Source of the DNA: Bacteriovoracaceae bacterium
GTDB taxonomy: Bacteria > Bdellovibrionota > Bacteriovoracia > Bacteriovoracales > Bacteriovoracaceae
Direction: 5' to 3'
DNA: 64,000 nucleotides
Assembly: GCA_018649885.1 (NCBI GenBank)
Contig: JABIHA010000122.1
Span: 1-64,000, forward strand
Shown: piece by piece, positions 1-15,641 of the stretch
Position numbering within the stretch: position 1 is the first letter of the stretch
Layout: each line of letters opens with the position of its first letter
The notes under the pieces: model-generated
Seen by the model: only the letters and a program-made list of their open reading frames with translations
Told to the model about the DNA's origin: nothing
The model's database searches: none
Made by a program: the position numbers and the translations under genes

Positions 1-215
1 AGCGTCTTGAGCAAGCTCTTGGCACTTATTTTTAAGTTTGCCCTTATTCCAGTCTTTTATCCAACCAGCTGCAATGTTTTTTAGATCATCAAATGACATA
101 TTAAAATATTGGCAGAAAAGTTACGCTTGGCCAAATAATATAAATGACATAGAGCCGCACCGGCGAAAAAGCCTGGTGGGTTCAACAATTTATTGGGCAG
201 TTACGATTTTCTATT

Positions 216-260
216 GCTCCGGGACCACTCGATCTCGTTATATCGACTATTTGTGTTTTA
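216..260. repeat. Isolated partial copy of the B-type repeat unit of the 6964-7535 array
   Basis: gctccgggaccactcgatctcgttatatcgactatttgtgtttta matches gctccgggaccactcgaactcgctatatcgactttttgtgtttta (~7445-7489) with 3 mismatches in 45 nt, same orientation. Confidence 0.85.
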
Positions 261-482
261 TCACTTCAGATACGAGTACAAACAACTTCGTAACCATTAA
301 CTCACGACTTTTTTCAGAATTGAATACGTTGTCAGTTGTAAAAAAGAGAAATATTCAAGAGATTGAAGAAAACTAAAAAGAACAAAAGCAGTGCTGCTTC
401 TTCTTCAGCTCGTCTAATAATTCAAAGATAAGAAGAGCATTTGAGCACAGTAAGGTAAGACTATACAAGCGCCAGTGACATG

Positions 483-1376: not shown

Positions 1377-4300
1377 ATGAAAAACTGCAATGTATTGCTC
1401 CTCTTATTAATTTCAATGACATTTTTTGCATGTAACTCAGAAAAAGGCGGTGGTAGTACAACTAGCACTACAACAGTTGTTAAAGAAGTTCCAGTTGAAT
1501 CCACTCCCAAACCTATTGAGCCTGAAACTGTGGAAATGGTTTCCAATTTAAATATGTCTATGGCACCTATTGTAGAGAGTTACCATCGCCTTGAATTTGT
1601 TGAAGGATTTACCTTTTCGGCCATAGGCGATAGTTACGCCAATGGATCTTGGTATCATGAAGAGAATGAAGTCATTGGGACAAAGCATCTCTCAGATTTC
1701 AAACAAGGGCAGATACTTTATTTTGTAGAACAAAGTGTAGAGGGAGAAAAAGTTTCAGAGAATTATTTTATTTTCCCAGGTCTTTCAGATTTAACAGTAG
1801 AAAGTGTTCGCGTTGAGGAAGATGATATTGTCGTTGTTGTGAAAAATATAGGGGGTTCAGAATTTAATTATGATTCATTAATTGATACTTTCAAAGTGAA
1901 AACATTTGTAGATTTTTCTAAGAGACAATCTTATAGGAACGTGGATTATTCACCAGAAGAATATTTTTCTGAAACCTCAAATATCGCTATCCCAAAAGTT
2001 GGAGAGAGCGTAGAGGTGCGAATTTCAAAAATGCCATATATAGCCTTTATGAATTATTTTGGAACTTCAGATAGTGAATTTTTCGAAATCCCACTTTATA
2101 TTAATATAGATCCAGAAGGGGTCATTCGTGAATACAATCGATTTAATAATAAAAATATTTTCCCACTTCGATTTTTTAATGGCCAGGAAAGAGCAGATGT
2201 GGCCATTGAGTCAGTTGAGCTGATGGGAAGTGAAATAAAACTGAAAATGAAAAATGATGGGTTTCGTTCAGTTTCAATAGAAAAAATGATTGTCTATCCA
2301 AAGTACAATAGAGATCTAAATATTGAGTTGAAAAGCTATCCCTATATTCAAATGAATCAATTCTCAGAACTCATTTTTCGTGCCGATTTATTTCCTCTAA
2401 GTGAAGGAGAGGATCAGAGCTGGGTTTTTGAAGCTATTATTAGTGGTGATGAGGATCTTGATTTATCTAATAATTCAATGGAGCTCAATTTTAATGCAAA
2501 TCAAGTTGAGGCCTTTGAAGATGATGTATCAGTTTCTAACTTTCACTACGATTCATCTTCAAGTGAGCTAAAGTTTACACTCGAAAATAAGGGAGTGAAT
2601 GATTTAGACCGTGTTCGTTTTGATATTGCTGATGAAGAGCCTGAATTGGATAGAGATAGATTCTATGAGCAAACAAACTTAGTTGCAGGAGAGCAAAGAG
2701 AAGTGAGTATCTCTTTTGATGAGATATTTTTTTCAGGCACAATTGGTGAGAAAGTATACAGTGTTGTATTGGATAAGAATGATTCTCTATGGGAAAGTAA
2801 CGAAGTTAATAATGTTGCGACCACCACTTTTACTTTAGATCCCTTTGACGTTGAAGTCGTAAGTTCTCTAGAGGAAGAGGGATTTTTTAATATTGCTTAT
2901 AAGTTGGGAGGATCTTTCAAATATTCACAAGTTGACTATACAACTTTTAGAATCCTGTCACGGGTTCAAGGAAATGGCTCATTTAGAAATCAAATAGACT
3001 TAACCCCTGATTCGTGGGAATTAGGGGTTGAATATACATCTTCTGTTTCAATATCAGAAATCATGGAAAAAGTCATGGACTACTATGATGGCCAAACGGT
3101 AGATGTCTTTGCCGAGTTTATTACCAACCTTAATGAAGTTAACACCGAAAATAATAAGGTTAAATTAATTGATACAATTGTAGTTCCAAGAAAGCTTCCC
3201 AATTTGACAATTTCAGAAATCAATACCTCTACTGAGGGCCTATCTTGGAAGGTTGTCAATATTGGGGATAAAGATTTTTATGAATACAGAAACTACTTAA
3301 GAATCAAGATTACTATTAATGGAGTTACGAAAACGGAGAGATTTTCCTACTATCTTGACGTGGGAGAAGACGAAGCTGAGGTGGGTTACTTTGATTTTAA
3401 TCAGTTTGGGTTAGAGCTTGGACAAAGATATGATATTGTTGCTGAACTGGTACTCGATAGTCCTATTGAAGAAAAATCTCTTGATGATAACCGCCTTGAA
3501 ACTTTTGTTCAAATGCCTGAGCCACCAAAACCCAACTTTGCCGTTGAGTCCATAATAAGAAATGAAACTCGGATAATTGTTTACATTGAAAATACTGAAA
3601 CCACAATTTGCCCTGGGTGTACAGAATACCCTGTGAAGATATTAAATGAAGCGGGCGATCTTGTTGCAGAAAAAACAATTGATTTATCAATGCAAAATAA
3701 GAATATGACGAGAAAAAGCGTCACTTTTAACTACGCTGATATCGATTTGGCAATTAAAACACCAAGCACTCTGACAGCAGTTTTGAATTCTGGGAATATC
3801 ATTTCAGAGGTAAGCTATGATGACAATAGTGGAGAATTTCCATTCACCAAATTGGGGTATTATGACCTTAAAGTTGAAAGTATTTCAAAAACACTAAATG
3901 GCTATAATGTATTGATAAAAAATATTGGGATCAGTACAACAAGCAACTATGATGTTGTACTGGAATACAATGGAGAGACGATTAGACCCGACTTTTCTCC
4001 TTCAAATAAAACTGTTTATACTGGTAGCATGAAAACATTTTCTTTTAGCTCTGTTGATATTAGGGAGTCGTGGATTCCTATTTTAGGAGAAAAGATTTCT
4101 GCTATTGTTAACTTCATAAGCGATGATGACAATAGTGATAATAAACTTGTTTCTGAATTTGAAATACCTTACTTTGACCTTGAGGTCACAGAAATAAACT
4201 CCATTGAAGGAGGGATATCAGTTTCTGTAAAAAACCATGGGCCTACCCTTTCTAGTTACCACAGTGGTAAATTAAAGGTTCAATTTAATGATAATGAAGA

Positions 4301-6935
4301 TTTTGACACAGGTGTCAGACAAAGTAGAGAGATTAATGTAGGTGATATTGCACAAGGAGAAACAAAACAATATCAAATTACAGGTTATCAATATAATTCT
4401 CTGATGGGTAATGCCCTCCAAACTTGGGATGCCTCAGGTCACCTTCATGCCAAAGTTGATTTTGAAAACGATTTAAATGAAGTGAACGAAAATAACAACT
4501 ATCTTCATACAAACTATAGTTTACCAAGTCCCAAAATTGATATTGAGGTTACACGGATGTACTGGCTTAGTTCATCTCAGCTGACAGTTGTTGGAAAAAA
4601 CAATGGAGACGCCTGTACAATAAATTGTCCTAAAGTGAAAGGCAAATTCTATGCCGTTGACGAGGATGGAAACGCAAATAATCCCGTTGAAGTTGAGTTT
4701 GCAATACCCAGCTCAACTGATAAGTCCATGGTCTCATTGGGGGCAAGTCAGCTCGGTCTTGAAATGAGAAAAGAGTATCAAATATTTTTTGAAGCAGACC
4801 ATAATGAGATTTTCCCAGAAGAAAATGAAGAAGATAATATTGGCTCAGTCACTTATACTCACCGCTGGGTTTATGATCTTGAAGTAACTGATTTTTCTTA
4901 TGATAGTGAAACAAAGAGATGGACAGTCAATGTTCTCAACCAAGGAAAAGATAGTGTTAAGTTTAGAAATGTTACTGTACGAGGAGCAGGGATTGGATCA
5001 AATGATATCTTTTTTAAAGATTTAAATTATACAAATTCAATTTATTCTGGTCAAAAGAGCTCCTTTACTATTGATAACAGGGATCTTAAATTTCATCCTG
5101 GTGAAGCACCAAACGAGATTTCAGTTGTCGTAAGAGCGGATTATGATAACGATTTAGTTAATAATACGCTGGTAAAAACAATTGATGCTCCCTTTATCGA
5201 TTTTGAGTTGGGGGAAGTGACAATTGATTCAGTAAATCAGAAAATTGATATCCAGTATTTTTCAAAGGGAGCAGGTCTTGCAAATGCGGCTACTGCTACT
5301 GGCAAAGTCTTTTTTCTTGAAAGTAATCCAATAGTAGTGAATTTAGATTTAGAAGAAGGGGAGCATCACCTTATCCTAGAAGATTACAGTTGGATTAGAT
5401 TGACTCCTTTTTTAACTGATAATGCAAATCAGTCCACGGCAACCTTAACAGTACTACTCGATGATCGTGACTATAATTTTGAATCAAATGAAGAAAACAA
5501 TTCAATAGAAAAATCACATCTTTTTTCAGCTGCAAAGGCTGATCTCACTATTTCAAGTTTTTCTCTTGATTATGATCGGATAGTAATTAATGTGAAAAAT
5601 GATGGACCAGCAAGAGTTGCACATGGATCAAATTTCACAATTAATTTACGTGCAGGAGAGATTGAGAAAAATCTCCTAGAGTGGACAACATTTTATAGAA
5701 ATGAAGAAAAGGAATACATCATCCCACTTTCAGAGTTTCCTCTACAAGATGGAGCTGAATATACAATAACGGTAACAGTAGATCATTCTCAAGTTGTTGA
5801 TGAAAGAAACGAAGATAATAATGCCTACTCCACAACACTTGTGATGTCAGATTTGCCAGAATCTGACCTTTCTATTAAATCTGTCGCTGTAAATGATTTT
5901 TACCTTGATATTGAAGTTCAAAACCTAGGGGAAAAAACAAATAGAGATTTGAATGATTTTAATATTTCAGTGCAAAGTGGAGATGACTTTTCTAAGATAT
6001 TTAGATTGGTGAAAGTACCTGCTGCTTTGGGGACTGAGCTCATCTCTATTCCTTTGTCTGAGCTAGAACCACTAAGGGGGCAGATGGCCAGCTTTAATGT
6101 GGCCCTTGATATTGAAAATACAATTGTCGAGGTAGATGAAGAAAATAACTCTGGAAATTTTGATATATTCATTCCCGAGCGTGGGTCCCCTGATTTTAGA
6201 GTAGTTGATATTTATAAAACACATAGTAATATAGATGGTCATCGAAGTGGCGAGATGTTTGTAGTTTTAATTGAAAATATGGGTACAGAATATGCAAGTC
6301 CTTCATCAGTATCAAATCTATCAATTGGTGAACTTACTCTTTCAAGAAATACTAATTCTTGGCAGGAAATTAAAAGAGGAAGAAGATATATATCAAGAAT
6401 TCCTTTAGAAACTATGGGTGTTTATGATGCGCTTAGTGTGCAGTTTCCAAATGAAGAAAACCCCAACCTCATTGTAAGTTTTGACTTTGATGTTGAACAA
6501 AACATAACAGAGTTCGACGAGGAAAATAACTCATTTGAAATAGAGCTACCCTTTTATCAAGATAGCGTGGAAATTAATTTCATAGACGATAGTGCCAATT
6601 TTGAAATGGTCTCAATTGTTCAACATGAAGATTTGGAAACCTATAAATTTTCTTTTAAATATACTGGAGATTTGCCAAGTCGCGCACTCTCTCCTCAACT
6701 TTATATTAAAGTGTTCTTTACTATGCCTTCAGGGGAAGTAATATCAGGTAGCTATAATTTCTTTCCCTCTCTGACTTTTCATCCTGGAGTTACTTACGAT
6801 TCCTTTCTTCGCTTTGATCATGTGAACCACGAAATTCCAGAAGGTTTTCAAAGTTTTAAAGTGGTTATTGATCATGATGGACTGATTGATGAGACAAATG
6901 AAATTGATAATGAAATGAACTACACAGTAGAATAA
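1377..6935 (+). CDS. Giant lipoprotein with ~15 tandem CARDB/Ig-like domains (putative adhesin)
   Basis: Lipobox LLISMTFFA-C; Thr/Pro linker; ~15 modules starting (P)DLxV/I, containing VKNxG and ending ExNExNN-like motifs. Confidence 0.85.
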   Translation: MKNCNVLLLLLISMTFFACNSEKGGGSTTSTTTVVKEVPVESTPKPIEPETVEMVSNLNMSMAPIVESYHRLEFVEGFTFSAIGDSYANGSWYHEENEVIGTKHLSDFKQGQILYFVEQSVEGEKVSENYFIFPGLSDLTVESVRVEEDDIVVVVKNIGGSEFNYDSLIDTFKVKTFVDFSKRQSYRNVDYSPEEYFSETSNIAIPKVGESVEVRISKMPYIAFMNYFGTSDSEFFEIPLYINIDPEGVIREYNRFNNKNIFPLRFFNGQERADVAIESVELMGSEIKLKMKNDGFRSVSIEKMIVYPKYNRDLNIELKSYPYIQMNQFSELIFRADLFPLSEGEDQSWVFEAIISGDEDLDLSNNSMELNFNANQVEAFEDDVSVSNFHYDSSSSELKFTLENKGVNDLDRVRFDIADEEPELDRDRFYEQTNLVAGEQREVSISFDEIFFSGTIGEKVYSVVLDKNDSLWESNEVNNVATTTFTLDPFDVEVVSSLEEEGFFNIAYKLGGSFKYSQVDYTTFRILSRVQGNGSFRNQIDLTPDSWELGVEYTSSVSISEIMEKVMDYYDGQTVDVFAEFITNLNEVNTENNKVKLIDTIVVPRKLPNLTISEINTSTEGLSWKVVNIGDKDFYEYRNYLRIKITINGVTKTERFSYYLDVGEDEAEVGYFDFNQFGLELGQRYDIVAELVLDSPIEEKSLDDNRLETFVQMPEPPKPNFAVESIIRNETRIIVYIENTETTICPGCTEYPVKILNEAGDLVAEKTIDLSMQNKNMTRKSVTFNYADIDLAIKTPSTLTAVLNSGNIISEVSYDDNSGEFPFTKLGYYDLKVESISKTLNGYNVLIKNIGISTTSNYDVVLEYNGETIRPDFSPSNKTVYTGSMKTFSFSSVDIRESWIPILGEKISAIVNFISDDDNSDNKLVSEFEIPYFDLEVTEINSIEGGISVSVKNHGPTLSSYHSGKLKVQFNDNEDFDTGVRQSREINVGDIAQGETKQYQITGYQYNSLMGNALQTWDASGHLHAKVDFENDLNEVNENNNYLHTNYSLPSPKIDIEVTRMYWLSSSQLTVVGKNNGDACTINCPKVKGKFYAVDEDGNANNPVEVEFAIPSSTDKSMVSLGASQLGLEMRKEYQIFFEADHNEIFPEENEEDNIGSVTYTHRWVYDLEVTDFSYDSETKRWTVNVLNQGKDSVKFRNVTVRGAGIGSNDIFFKDLNYTNSIYSGQKSSFTIDNRDLKFHPGEAPNEISVVVRADYDNDLVNNTLVKTIDAPFIDFELGEVTIDSVNQKIDIQYFSKGAGLANAATATGKVFFLESNPIVVNLDLEEGEHHLILEDYSWIRLTPFLTDNANQSTATLTVLLDDRDYNFESNEENNSIEKSHLFSAAKADLTISSFSLDYDRIVINVKNDGPARVAHGSNFTINLRAGEIEKNLLEWTTFYRNEEKEYIIPLSEFPLQDGAEYTITVTVDHSQVVDERNEDNNAYSTTLVMSDLPESDLSIKSVAVNDFYLDIEVQNLGEKTNRDLNDFNISVQSGDDFSKIFRLVKVPAALGTELISIPLSELEPLRGQMASFNVALDIENTIVEVDEENNSGNFDIFIPERGSPDFRVVDIYKTHSNIDGHRSGEMFVVLIENMGTEYASPSSVSNLSIGELTLSRNTNSWQEIKRGRRYISRIPLETMGVYDALSVQFPNEENPNLIVSFDFDVEQNITEFDEENNSFEIELPFYQDSVEINFIDDSANFEMVSIVQHEDLETYKFSFKYTGDLPSRALSPQLYIKVFFTMPSGEVISGSYNFFPSLTFHPGVTYDSFLRFDHVNHEIPEGFQSFKVVIDHDGLIDETNEIDNEMNYTVE

Positions 6936-6963
6936 AAATTGAGAGGATAAGCGGACCTATGTT

Positions 6964-7535
6964 CGCATCCTGCTCTTCCTTCCCTCCGCCATCCAGGCTC
7001 CGGGGCTTCTCGAACTCGCTCTATCGAAATCTTGTGTCTTAGTTGCCAGCTTCAAAGTAAAAATGTGCCAGTGCTTAGTACGAAGTCACAACTTCGGACT
7101 CTACCGCATCCTGCTCAAATGTCTCCCTACGCCATCCTGGCTCCGGGACCAATTGAACTCGCTTAATCGACTGTTTGTGTTTTAGATCTTTGGTTACGAA
7201 ATAAAAAATGTACCTGTGCACAGCTCTTTGGTCACAGCTTCGAACTTCACCGCATCCTGCTCTTCCAGTCCCTCCGCCATCCAGTCCCTCCGCCATCCAG
7301 GCTCCGGGGCTTCTCGAACTCGCTTTATCAAAATTTAGTGTTTTAATTGCCAGCTTCGGAATAAAAATGTGCCAGTGCTTAATTCTAAGTCACAGCTTTG
7401 GACTCTACCGCATCCTGCTCTCGTGCACGCCCTACGCCATCCAGGCTCCGGGACCACTCGAACTCGCTATATCGACTTTTTGTGTTTTAGATCTTTGGTT
7501 ACGAAGTAAAAATGTGCCTTTGGGCACATTTTTTC
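6964..7535. repeat. Tandem array of four ~130-160 bp units in A-B-A-B order, downstream of tRNA-Val
   Basis: Units start with cgcatcctgctc at 6964, 7105, 7251 and 7409; shared blocks cgccatcc(a/t)ggctccggg, gaactcgct, aaaaatgt(g/a)cc; unit 1 resembles unit 3 and unit 2 resembles unit 4. Confidence 0.95.
7508..7534 (-). terminator. Intrinsic terminator of tRNA-Val
   Basis: aaaaatgtgcc-tttg-ggcacattttt hairpin with A/T tracts, immediately 3' of the CCA end. Confidence 0.8.
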
Positions 7536-7538
7536 GAG

Positions 7539-7615
<77 letters not shown>

Positions 7616-14339: not shown

Positions 14340-15641
14340 TCAACCAATTCCAGGTAAGAGCTGAAAGAAGAAAGCCGCAACGAGTGTGGGTATTAGAGCT
14401 GATATTAACAATCCTAACGGTGAAATCCCATCCTCTCCAAAAGCGGACTTCAAGATTCCAAAGCCTGCAGGGTTGGGAGCGTTTGCGATCACAGTCAAGC
14501 CACCACCCGTGACAGCACCTGCCACAAGGTTATATTTAGCCGCATCCGAAAGACCCTCCACAAGAGTTCCTAGATACGTCAAAGCTGCATTATCTGTAAG
14601 AGCTGTTAAACCAGTTGCTCCAACAAAGAGTGCAAAATCGCCTAGTTTTGATATAAGAGGTTGCAGCCACCAAGCTTGTAGGGAGCCAAGAGTAACAAGA
14701 CCACCCAGGAAAAATCCAACAAGTAGAGATTCTGTCACCTTTAATTTATCTTGATATTCTTGAGTAACAACAGCAAAGCCTAGGAAGAATAAGAAAATCC
14801 CCATAAAGACGGCCATATGATGTGAGTAGAAAACTACCAAGCCTAAAAAACCTAGATGAAATGCTGTTACCCAAAGTGGGGCCTTCATCTCCGCCCCCCC
14901 TTCCTGAGGAGCATCAATTTTTCCCTGTAGTTCACCTTTAAATCTCATGGTAATTATAGCGGTTGAAACAATACATGCGAAGATGGCCTTATAACCAAAA
15001 TTTAAAAACATATAACTCATTGTATAGCCCCACTTACTGGCCACCATTAACACTGGAGGAGCAGCAAAATGAGTAAGGGTCCCACCGATTGAAACATTGA
15101 CAAATAAAAGGCCGATGGTGGCGTATTTAAATTTATCTGACATTTCTTTCTTATAAAATGTCTCGAGTAAAATAAGTGCGGTTACAGTCATTGAAGCTGG
15201 CTCTGTTATAAAAGATCCAAGTAGCGGCCCCATTACCATGGTGGTGGCATAGAATGACATTTTTTCGTTAAATGGCAAAAGTTTAGCAAAAAATACAATA
15301 ATATTTTCAGCCAACTTTATGACTGGCCTGGTACCTGCCATACACATAATAACAAAAACAAAGGCAGGCTCAGTATAGTTTACGACTCCCAAACTACTGT
15401 GACCTTCAAGATAGGCTACGGCATCATGGTTACCTTTAATCGCTATGAACGCCACAAAAAGGAAGAGGGCCCAAAGACCAAAAACGGCCTCAACTTCTCC
15501 CAGAAAGTGAAAAAAGTTTTCACCCACTGACCCTTCTGGGTATTTATGAGCAATATGCTCGAATTTTTTCACCATGAAAGTGTGTATTACCGCGATAGCG
15601 AACAGTACCGTCGCAATAATTTCAATTGTGCTTGGATTCAT
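14340..15641 (-). CDS. Putative Na+/H+ antiporter (DUF1504-type)
   Basis: Polytopic membrane protein with GSFITEPASMT, NVSIGGTLTHFAAPPVLM and GGGLTVIANAPNPAG motifs. Confidence 0.85.
   Translation of the reverse strand: MNPSTIEIIATVLFAIAVIHTFMVKKFEHIAHKYPEGSVGENFFHFLGEVEAVFGLWALFLFVAFIAIKGNHDAVAYLEGHSSLGVVNYTEPAFVFVIMCMAGTRPVIKLAENIIVFFAKLLPFNEKMSFYATTMVMGPLLGSFITEPASMTVTALILLETFYKKEMSDKFKYATIGLLFVNVSIGGTLTHFAAPPVLMVASKWGYTMSYMFLNFGYKAIFACIVSTAIITMRFKGELQGKIDAPQEGGAEMKAPLWVTAFHLGFLGLVVFYSHHMAVFMGIFLFFLGFAVVTQEYQDKLKVTESLLVGFFLGGLVTLGSLQAWWLQPLISKLGDFALFVGATGLTALTDNAALTYLGTLVEGLSDAAKYNLVAGAVTGGGLTVIANAPNPAGFGILKSAFGEDGISPLGLLISALIPTLVAAFFFQLLPGIG

Follow-up and report, generated by a model that had tools for sequence, protein, structure and literature searches.

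Behind a tRNA-Val gene in the window (the whole 64,000-nucleotide stretch of DNA analyzed here) lies an array of four diverged units that we read, at a probability of about one in two, as a tRNA-linked tandem repeat of a ~145-bp structured module, possibly transcribed by terminator read-through. The anatomy of the repeat, its rarity, its linkage to tRNA genes, and the changes that preserve pairing in its core are directly observed and carry the argument. The module itself would have three parts, all apparently non-coding: a hairpin of the terminator type, ~45 nt of AT-rich spacer, and ~60 nt of GC-rich core. As an RNA, the core would fold into a 3-bp outer helix, a 3-by-3 GNA/GNA internal loop, a GC helix of 3 to 4 bp, and a five-base loop, with a conserved, single-stranded AGGAUGCGG after it. 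By analogy with the RrA, RrB, and RrF repeats of Escherichia coli, such an RNA might arise when transcription reads through the tRNA terminator, in which case its abundance would track transcription of the tRNA. Transcription, its strand, read-through, and a role in the cell are what we infer from these sequences.

Organization of the array

The array (window positions 6964 through 7538) comprises four head-to-tail units of 143 to 161 bp in ABAB order behind tRNA-Val. The units span the gap between the hairpin of the tRNA-Val gene (T1) and the stop codon of a convergent gene, and the features of this region are as follows.

1377 to 6935, plus strand: convergent 1852-aa gene with a CARDB domain (open reading frame and domain match)
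6904 to 6933, plus strand: promoter-like site (TTGATA, 18 nt, TAGAAT) in the last codons of the 1852-aa open reading frame, directed into the array
6936 to 7057, minus strand: unit R1, A type, the last unit, with a differing tail (core match 6959-7041, 89.8 bits)
7058 to 7200, minus strand: unit R2, B type (core match 7099-7184, 96.3 bits)
7201 to 7360, minus strand: unit R3, A type, in which a 16-bp duplication adds a second GGAUGGCGGAGGGACU block (core match 7245-7345, 93 bits)
7361 to 7507, minus strand: unit R4, B type, with spacer, core, and a tail holding a degraded terminator copy (core match 7403-7489, 100.5 bits)
7508 to 7534, no strand assigned: hairpin T1, made of an A-run, a GC-rich stem, and a T-run (11-bp stem in folds)
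7539 to 7615, minus strand: tRNA-Val (anticodon GAC), the gene preceding the array (ARAGORN; Rfam tRNA, 70.6 bits)

Successive unit starts are spaced by 143, 161, and 144 bp. Identity is 88.7% between units 1 and 3 (over 124 bp) and 86.1% between units 2 and 4 (over 115 bp), whereas pairs of an A-type with a B-type unit reach 72 to 79%. Because identities within each type exceed those between types, the true period is the two-unit block of 304 bp (6981 through 7116 against 7285 through 7420, 90% match). Spacing and pairwise identities thus confirm the four alternating units of the original prediction; the two-unit block that it described is real, but its period is slightly longer than the proposed ~290 to 300 bp. 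The internal 16-bp duplication that had been reported in unit 3 is exact (7264 through 7300, 2.3 copies, 100% matches), and the decayed copies of the tRNA terminator said to end units 1 through 3 are seen in alignments as degraded tRNA-Val terminator hairpins.

Read in the tRNA sense, each unit runs from the AT-rich spacer (~45 nt) through the GC-rich core (~60 nt) into a tail whose end preserves the terminator hairpin in degraded form. The tail of R1 ends in a hairpin at 6946 through 6971, which is followed by a U-run in the tRNA sense and is, as folded, a possible second terminator. T1 is terminator-like in both directions and its sequence is conserved together with the module in other genera, aligning with hairpins of the genomes G015, G153, G048, and G019; a simple consensus scan of the array region called no terminators. 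The promoter-like site at 6904 through 6933 is a 10/12 match to a sigma-70-like promoter; with one such site found and 1.8 expected in shuffles, it does not rise above chance. On the minus strand, a consensus scan found no promoter-like sites inside the units.

The array is real, not an assembly accident. Three pieces of the region (6500 through 7010, 6981 through 7314, and 7330 through 8000) are reproduced without differences in contigs of four other marine metagenome runs, among which no single contig spans the whole array. The depths of these pieces in run X2 are about equal (8.1, 7.2, and 6.9), which fits the ABAB path. An identical array is present in two metagenome contigs of the same organism from JGI. 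Among the sequencing runs that contain 6700 through 7800, which include marine metagenomes, none is of RNA.

The ABAB pattern is most simply explained as the duplication of an already diverged AB pair. The module and its terminator, possibly with the last third of tRNA-Val, would have been duplicated to give two units that diverged into A and B; the AB pair would then have been duplicated again, most simply via unequal recombination. Unit tails align to tRNA-Val from just after the anticodon loop, with an exact GGTAGAG, a likeness to the T arm, and a terminator copy. For R3, 13 of 15 positions of the tail agree with the T arm, a score equaled in 9 of 500 shuffles; the tail of R2 is marginal (37 of 500), and the tails of R4 and R1 are no closer to the tRNA than shuffles are (230 and 247 of 500 score as well). 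These alignments give a faint indication that the duplicated segment may have begun within the tRNA and extended over both terminator and module. The proposal that the array was built by duplicating the tRNA trailer, including its terminator, is supported.

Several other candidates in the array were tried and rejected. A degenerate tRNA gene was found neither with the tRNA model at E up to 10 nor by ARAGORN. Two open reading frames that cross the repeats (126 and 73 aa) have no Pfam match (E up to 0.1), and their frames, judged by eye, are not maintained from unit to unit. A candidate sigma-28-type promoter within the spacer has the wrong spacing, and its motif is not kept in the genus of G015 (by eye). 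In a mini-ORF after AGGAUG, the Shine-Dalgarno-like bases directly abut the AUG with no spacing (by eye).

Distribution of the module at tRNA genes

The genome of the window (G000) is a 5.45-Mb assembly of 151 contigs that is 92% complete. Searching all four units against this whole assembly with blastn (word size 7) returned the array and one partial copy, matched over 216 through 282, and nothing else. The partial copy is situated between two minus-strand genes, 6.7 kb from the array, and is without the GGA-rich part:

196 to 282, minus strand: solo partial module copy with the spacer and the core's first half (blastn, 84% over 68 bp; model match 196-260, 44.8 bits)

A REP-like or miniature dispersed mobile element, which the original prediction had offered as an alternative, could claim this one extra copy, but an array and a single partial copy are all that blastn finds in 5.45 Mb, so the alternative falls and is refuted for this 92%-complete genome. 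The array has no terminal inverted repeats, its sole inverted pair being terminator-related, and the module is absent from 147 of 151 genomes of the family; we regard such an element as vanishingly improbable.

A covariance model built on the core (model R1) was used for searches of the family and the phylum, which sampled these groups with Infernal's stricter filters. It matched 5 of 151 family genomes, four of which were kept (G000, G015, G153, and G048); the match in G155 (E 0.0099) was discarded, as it runs through sequence that looks coding by eye. In the phylum sample, 2 of 151 genomes were matched, and none of the 127 outside the family. G015 and G153 belong to one genus and G048 to another. 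Within the genus of G015, a search by DNA showed the module in 3 of 13 genomes; four others of the genus match the tRNA-Phe flank only until just past the tRNA terminator. Pattern scans were extended to larger collections. Among genome contigs they gave 119 stretches; scoring 80 of these with the model placed every one at chance level (14 to 22 bits). One stretch, coding-looking by eye, belongs to a MAG labelled Halobacteriovoraceae, and a 3-kb piece of this MAG shows 53 to 61% translated identity to two loci of G000, a hint at the affiliation of the latter. Metagenome contigs gave 37 stretches, 35 at chance level and the two scoring ones in contigs of the same organism, and viral contigs gave one match at chance level. 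The module is uncommon, with a patchy distribution limited to a few genera.

A partial match in G019, covering hairpin and spacer only (16.5 bits, E 0.1), was too weak to count. At this locus (G019:C1:2010500-2014500, 2013-2140), the terminator hairpin of a gene is followed by a module-like spacer (TAAAACAC ... TCGA ... GAGTTC) without the core. The gene upstream encodes a lysine/alanine-rich repeat protein, whose C-terminal part may be SWIB-like.

In the other genera the module is likewise linked to a tRNA gene. G015, G153, and G167 each carry a single module behind tRNA-Phe, in the orientation of the tRNA. Between tRNA and module stand the terminator of the tRNA itself and a further hairpin, which corresponds to T1. 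In G015 the module is followed by a nearly exact duplicate of the final ~22 nt of tRNA-Phe, and in G048 the module stands between two decayed tRNA-Phe 3' ends. The tRNA-Phe locus of G171, a genome of the same genus as G015, holds four degenerate copies of the tRNA 3' part with its terminator (at 2235-2305, 5062-5132, 5966-6036, and 6861-6931 of G171:C2:420400-429400), spaced 0.9 to 2.8 kb apart. Cargo genes between or beside these copies encode MerR/MerT, an ankyrin protein, an ORF6N protein, and DUF1275, with no integrase among the seven open reading frames scanned, and the locus gives the appearance of islets stacked at a single tRNA gene. The tRNA 3' flanks that carry the module are insertion hot spots.

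Two further observations concern these flanks. At the tRNA-Val ortholog of G015 (G015:C10:824000-842000, 3890-4040), a segment of ~40 bp is directly repeated ~115 bp further on; it begins with the last tRNA bases, flanks a short hairpin, and differs from the duplication in the window. In G015 (G015:C10:824000-842000, 15470-15520), G153, G167, and G048, a small hairpin plus 7 to 8 nt stands just before the conserved terminator-type hairpin. It occupies the place that the T arm and acceptor end of tRNA-Val have in the window, and is possibly what remains of a tRNA 3' part that travels with the module.

Pairing in the core hairpin

Eight core copies from three genera were available for comparison of the hairpin. 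MAFFT and model-derived alignments put the hairpin of G015's genus out of register, and we therefore parsed the copies by pattern with a script. G000 has CCC:GGG as its outer helix where the other genomes have GCC:GGU, a change from C:G to G:U in which both sides of the helix are altered. This helix encloses a 3 x 3 internal loop, each strand of which invariably begins with G and ends with A and differs only in the base between (GGA, GUA, GAA). Three forms of the inner helix occur, GCC:GGC, GCCC:GGGC, and GCGC:GCGC; it gains one pair outside G000 and shows a swap from C:G to G:C in G048. The apical loop, five bases long, is NGGAU in G000 and ACGAY in the other genomes. The GAGCAGGAUGCGG stretch after the hairpin is identical in G000 and the genus of G015 and has one G fewer in G048. 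Further G:U pairs are found in the outer helices of G015 and G048 (read by eye from sequences and folds).

The helices thus keep pairing through changes on both sides, although with only about four independent lineages these changes are few and lie beyond statistical testing. Watson-Crick swaps would equally be kept by a DNA inverted repeat. The G:U pairs, however, are A-C mismatches on the opposite strand, which favors RNA in the tRNA sense. The core is most likely an RNA on the tRNA-sense (minus) strand, and the G:U pairs support the original prediction's choice of that strand as the better candidate for a structured RNA.

Conservation within the array is concentrated in the cores: those of the A type are identical over ~40 nt, whereas their spacers differ at ~8 of 48 positions (counted in alignments). 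Folding energy does not set the array apart, which counts against a structured RNA: the whole array has z scores of -0.46 (minus strand) and -1.63 (plus strand). Single cores in the tRNA sense have z scores from -0.05 to -1.4, with R2 alone clearly beating its shuffles (z = -3.5).

GGA motifs, rival readings, and relation to known repeats

The original prediction had counted nine GGAUG motifs on the minus strand, and this count is confirmed. With nine GGATG between 6940 and 7509, the array ranks top among 429,064 genome-wide windows of 570 nt (mean 0.36), the next loci having seven. One of the two loci with seven (on contig C83) is coding-looking, and the four top GGA or AGGA loci inspected in G000 look like coding repeats. 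The GGA-richest windows of this genome (C17:1-570, C125:21401-21970, and C130:22351-22920) hold long frames with tandem Gly/Arg/Ser-rich coding repeats. In total, GGA occurs 22 times in the ~570 nt of the minus strand, and 11 of the 22 have a predicted unpaired probability of at least 0.7. Every UGGAU or AGGAU apical loop and every CGGAG internal loop is predicted to be unpaired. Among the stem-closed loops that had been proposed, GCC-UGGAU-GGC and GCC-AGGAU-GGC are present, with loops predicted unpaired at 0.80 to 1.0, but the four exact CAGGAUG sites are predicted to be mostly paired in the full-length fold (unpaired at 0.13 to 0.36).

These motifs change between genera. Outside G000, the internal loops are GUA/GGA or GAA/GAA, and CAGGAUG becomes CAGAUG in G048; at four aligned motif positions, GGA is found at none in G048 and at two in the genus of G015. 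The invariant is G-N-A, and the absence or reduction of GGA in the relatives weakens the idea of a CsrA sponge. An Rfam scan of 5500 through 9000 at E up to 10 returned the tRNA and chance-level matches only, and no CsrB, CsrC, or Rsm model; Rfam presumably also includes a model (RtT) for the tRNA-linked repeats of E. coli. The genome holds a single csrA (76 aa, 90 bits), which answers the question of whether the regulator is present. The order at its locus is flgK (partial), a flgL-like gene (Flagellin_N), csrA, and fliW (G000:C57:27983-31138, 1-2653), with a gap of 330 bp between csrA and fliW. We know of no RNA sponge described for a FliW-type CsrA, and we found no literature on small RNAs in Halobacteriovorax. 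The CsrA of Bacillus subtilis, which is of the FliW type, is described as being antagonized by the protein FliW, unlike its Gram-negative counterparts, and csrA beside fliW as the ancestral arrangement with a protein antagonist of CsrA (PMC13443453).

A minus-strand transcript that acts as a CsrB-like sponge, titrating CsrA via many GGA motifs in loops, therefore seems improbable to us, although parts of the proposal stand. The array packs 22 GGA and nine GGAUG into ~570 nt and is the densest GGATG window of the genome; half of the GGA motifs are predicted to be unpaired, there are four exact CAGGAUG, and csrA is present. The apical loop of G000 gained GGA relative to its homologs, and the 16-bp duplication adds more, so that GGA motifs have been multiplied in this genome. 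The repeat RNAs of E. coli rRNA operons are described as binding CsrA in vitro via GGA (PMC8144298), and the CsrA of Bdellovibrio as recognizing GGA hairpins in the hag leader (PMC13443453). But the homologous modules do not keep GGA, the constant part being G-N-A; no Rfam family except tRNA is matched at E up to 10; the CAGGAUG sites are mostly paired in prediction; and the only csrA adjoins fliW in a flagellar cluster. Moreover, the array is downstream of a terminator, on a strand without a promoter-like site. The array resembles CsrB, CsrC, and RsmX, RsmY, and RsmZ in its 22 GGA, several of them in predicted loops, in CAGGAUG, in its modular repeats, and in the presence of csrA. It differs from them in a unit of ~145 nt in place of their short hairpin repeat and in having no model match, no promoter of its own, and no conservation of GGA, and the CsrA of this genome is FliW-partnered. 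A narrower version, limited to G000, in which the gain of GGA is recent and an RNA of ~570 nt made by read-through of the tRNA-Val terminator titrates CsrA, is one we consider quite improbable. Were a sponge to exist, CsrA activity would be coupled to tRNA (growth-rate) transcription, and an RNA sponge independent of CsrB/Rsm would be present in a lineage thought to depend on a protein antagonist.

The main rival to a structured RNA module holds that the array is insertion debris at a tRNA gene, the module being the attachment-site arm of a small integrative element, with no RNA function; it is a possible account, though one that we think unlikely. The element would carry a replacement tRNA 3' part and terminator, repeated integration or recombination would have stacked the arms, and the conserved inverted repeat would be a putative protein-binding DNA site. 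Copies of the tRNA-Phe 3' end do flank the module in G015 and G048, and the G171 locus, with its four copies of the tRNA 3' part and terminator and its cargo genes, has an element-type copy that resembles one beside the module in G048. The presence of the module in just 3 of 13 genomes of one genus also fits, as do the unit borders in the window, which lie directly after the anticodon loop (GGTAGAG), presumably a common site of integrase crossover. But no integrase is near: none of the 12 Phage_integrase matches in G000 is on C4, the contig of the array, and none was found in nine open reading frames scanned around the G171 and G015 loci, nor does any collection searched hold an intact element carrying the module. 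G:U pairs in the helices are more readily explained in RNA than in DNA, sequence is kept more closely in the cores than in the tRNA fragments supposed to have been displaced, and block duplication accounts for the ABAB order better than serial integration does. Genomic islands are described as restoring the tRNA gene that they split and leaving a displaced fragment (Islander, PMC4383910). The module resembles attachment-site remnants of this kind in the tRNA 3'-end copies that flank it in G015 and G048, in the islet stack at tRNA-Phe of the related genus, and in its presence and absence within a genus. The array differs from such islands in that its units are far smaller, non-coding, and without an integrase nearby, and from their remnants in its weak likeness to tRNA in the window and in cores that surpass the tRNA fragments in conservation. 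If the array were debris, it would be a record of how tRNA 3' flanks gather and amplify short non-coding remnants.

Another account takes the opposite (plus) strand to be the functional one, either as a small RNA that ends at T1 or as the long 3' UTR of the 1852-aa gene; we find this very doubtful. Its C-rich CCUCC and CAUCCUGCUC stretches would pair with ribosome-binding sites, and its order of a conserved 13-nt C-rich stretch, a hairpin, an A/U-rich stretch, and a terminator hairpin with a U-run is the usual build of a base-pairing small RNA. T1 would serve in this direction too, and the promoter-like site at 6904 through 6933 is directed into the array. By eye, the 1852-aa open reading frame has no other terminator before T1, and the plus strand of the array may therefore be part of its 3' UTR. 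However, the G:U pairs become A-C mismatches on this strand, on which only the short inner hairpin forms, and single cores have z scores of +0.4 to -0.4, apart from R2 (-2.5). An intact terminator is found in unit 4 only, the promoter-like site is at chance expectation, and a gene for Hfq was not found in the 92%-complete genome.

Read as a tRNA-linked structured module, the array invites comparison with the tRNA-linked repeats (TLRs) of E. coli. These are described as having been known since 1978 and as numbering 22, with one to five per locus; those behind rRNA operons (RrA, RrB, and RrF) lie between two terminators and are made by read-through, and most TLRs are without known function (PMC8144298). 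The array shares with TLRs non-coding units of ~150 bp directly behind a tRNA or rRNA gene, in the same orientation and at one to five per locus. Both are placed past one terminator and have another terminator-like hairpin on the distal side, and both carry several GGA motifs; in G015, the unit also ends in a copy of the 3' end of the upstream tRNA. The 18 to 19 bases identical to the tRNA 3' end that define TLRs in this account are missing in the window, where the tails have only a degraded likeness to an internal part of tRNA-Val, and are nearly complete in G015. The two also have no relation in sequence (Rfam at E up to 10 gives only tRNA), and the host of the array is another organism, probably of another phylum, with no Hfq gene found. 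With the 18 to 19 bases missing and no sequence relation, we file the array as a variant of the TLRs and not as a member.

An unrelated, structurally conserved counterpart of these repeats in a distant marine lineage suggests that the space behind the terminators of tRNA genes is a recurrent birthplace of small-RNA modules. A compact hairpin motif, with its GNA/GNA internal loop and five-base loop, is now available to test. If the GGA-rich amplified version of the window binds CsrA, it would be a case of an RNA sponge arising in a FliW-type system.
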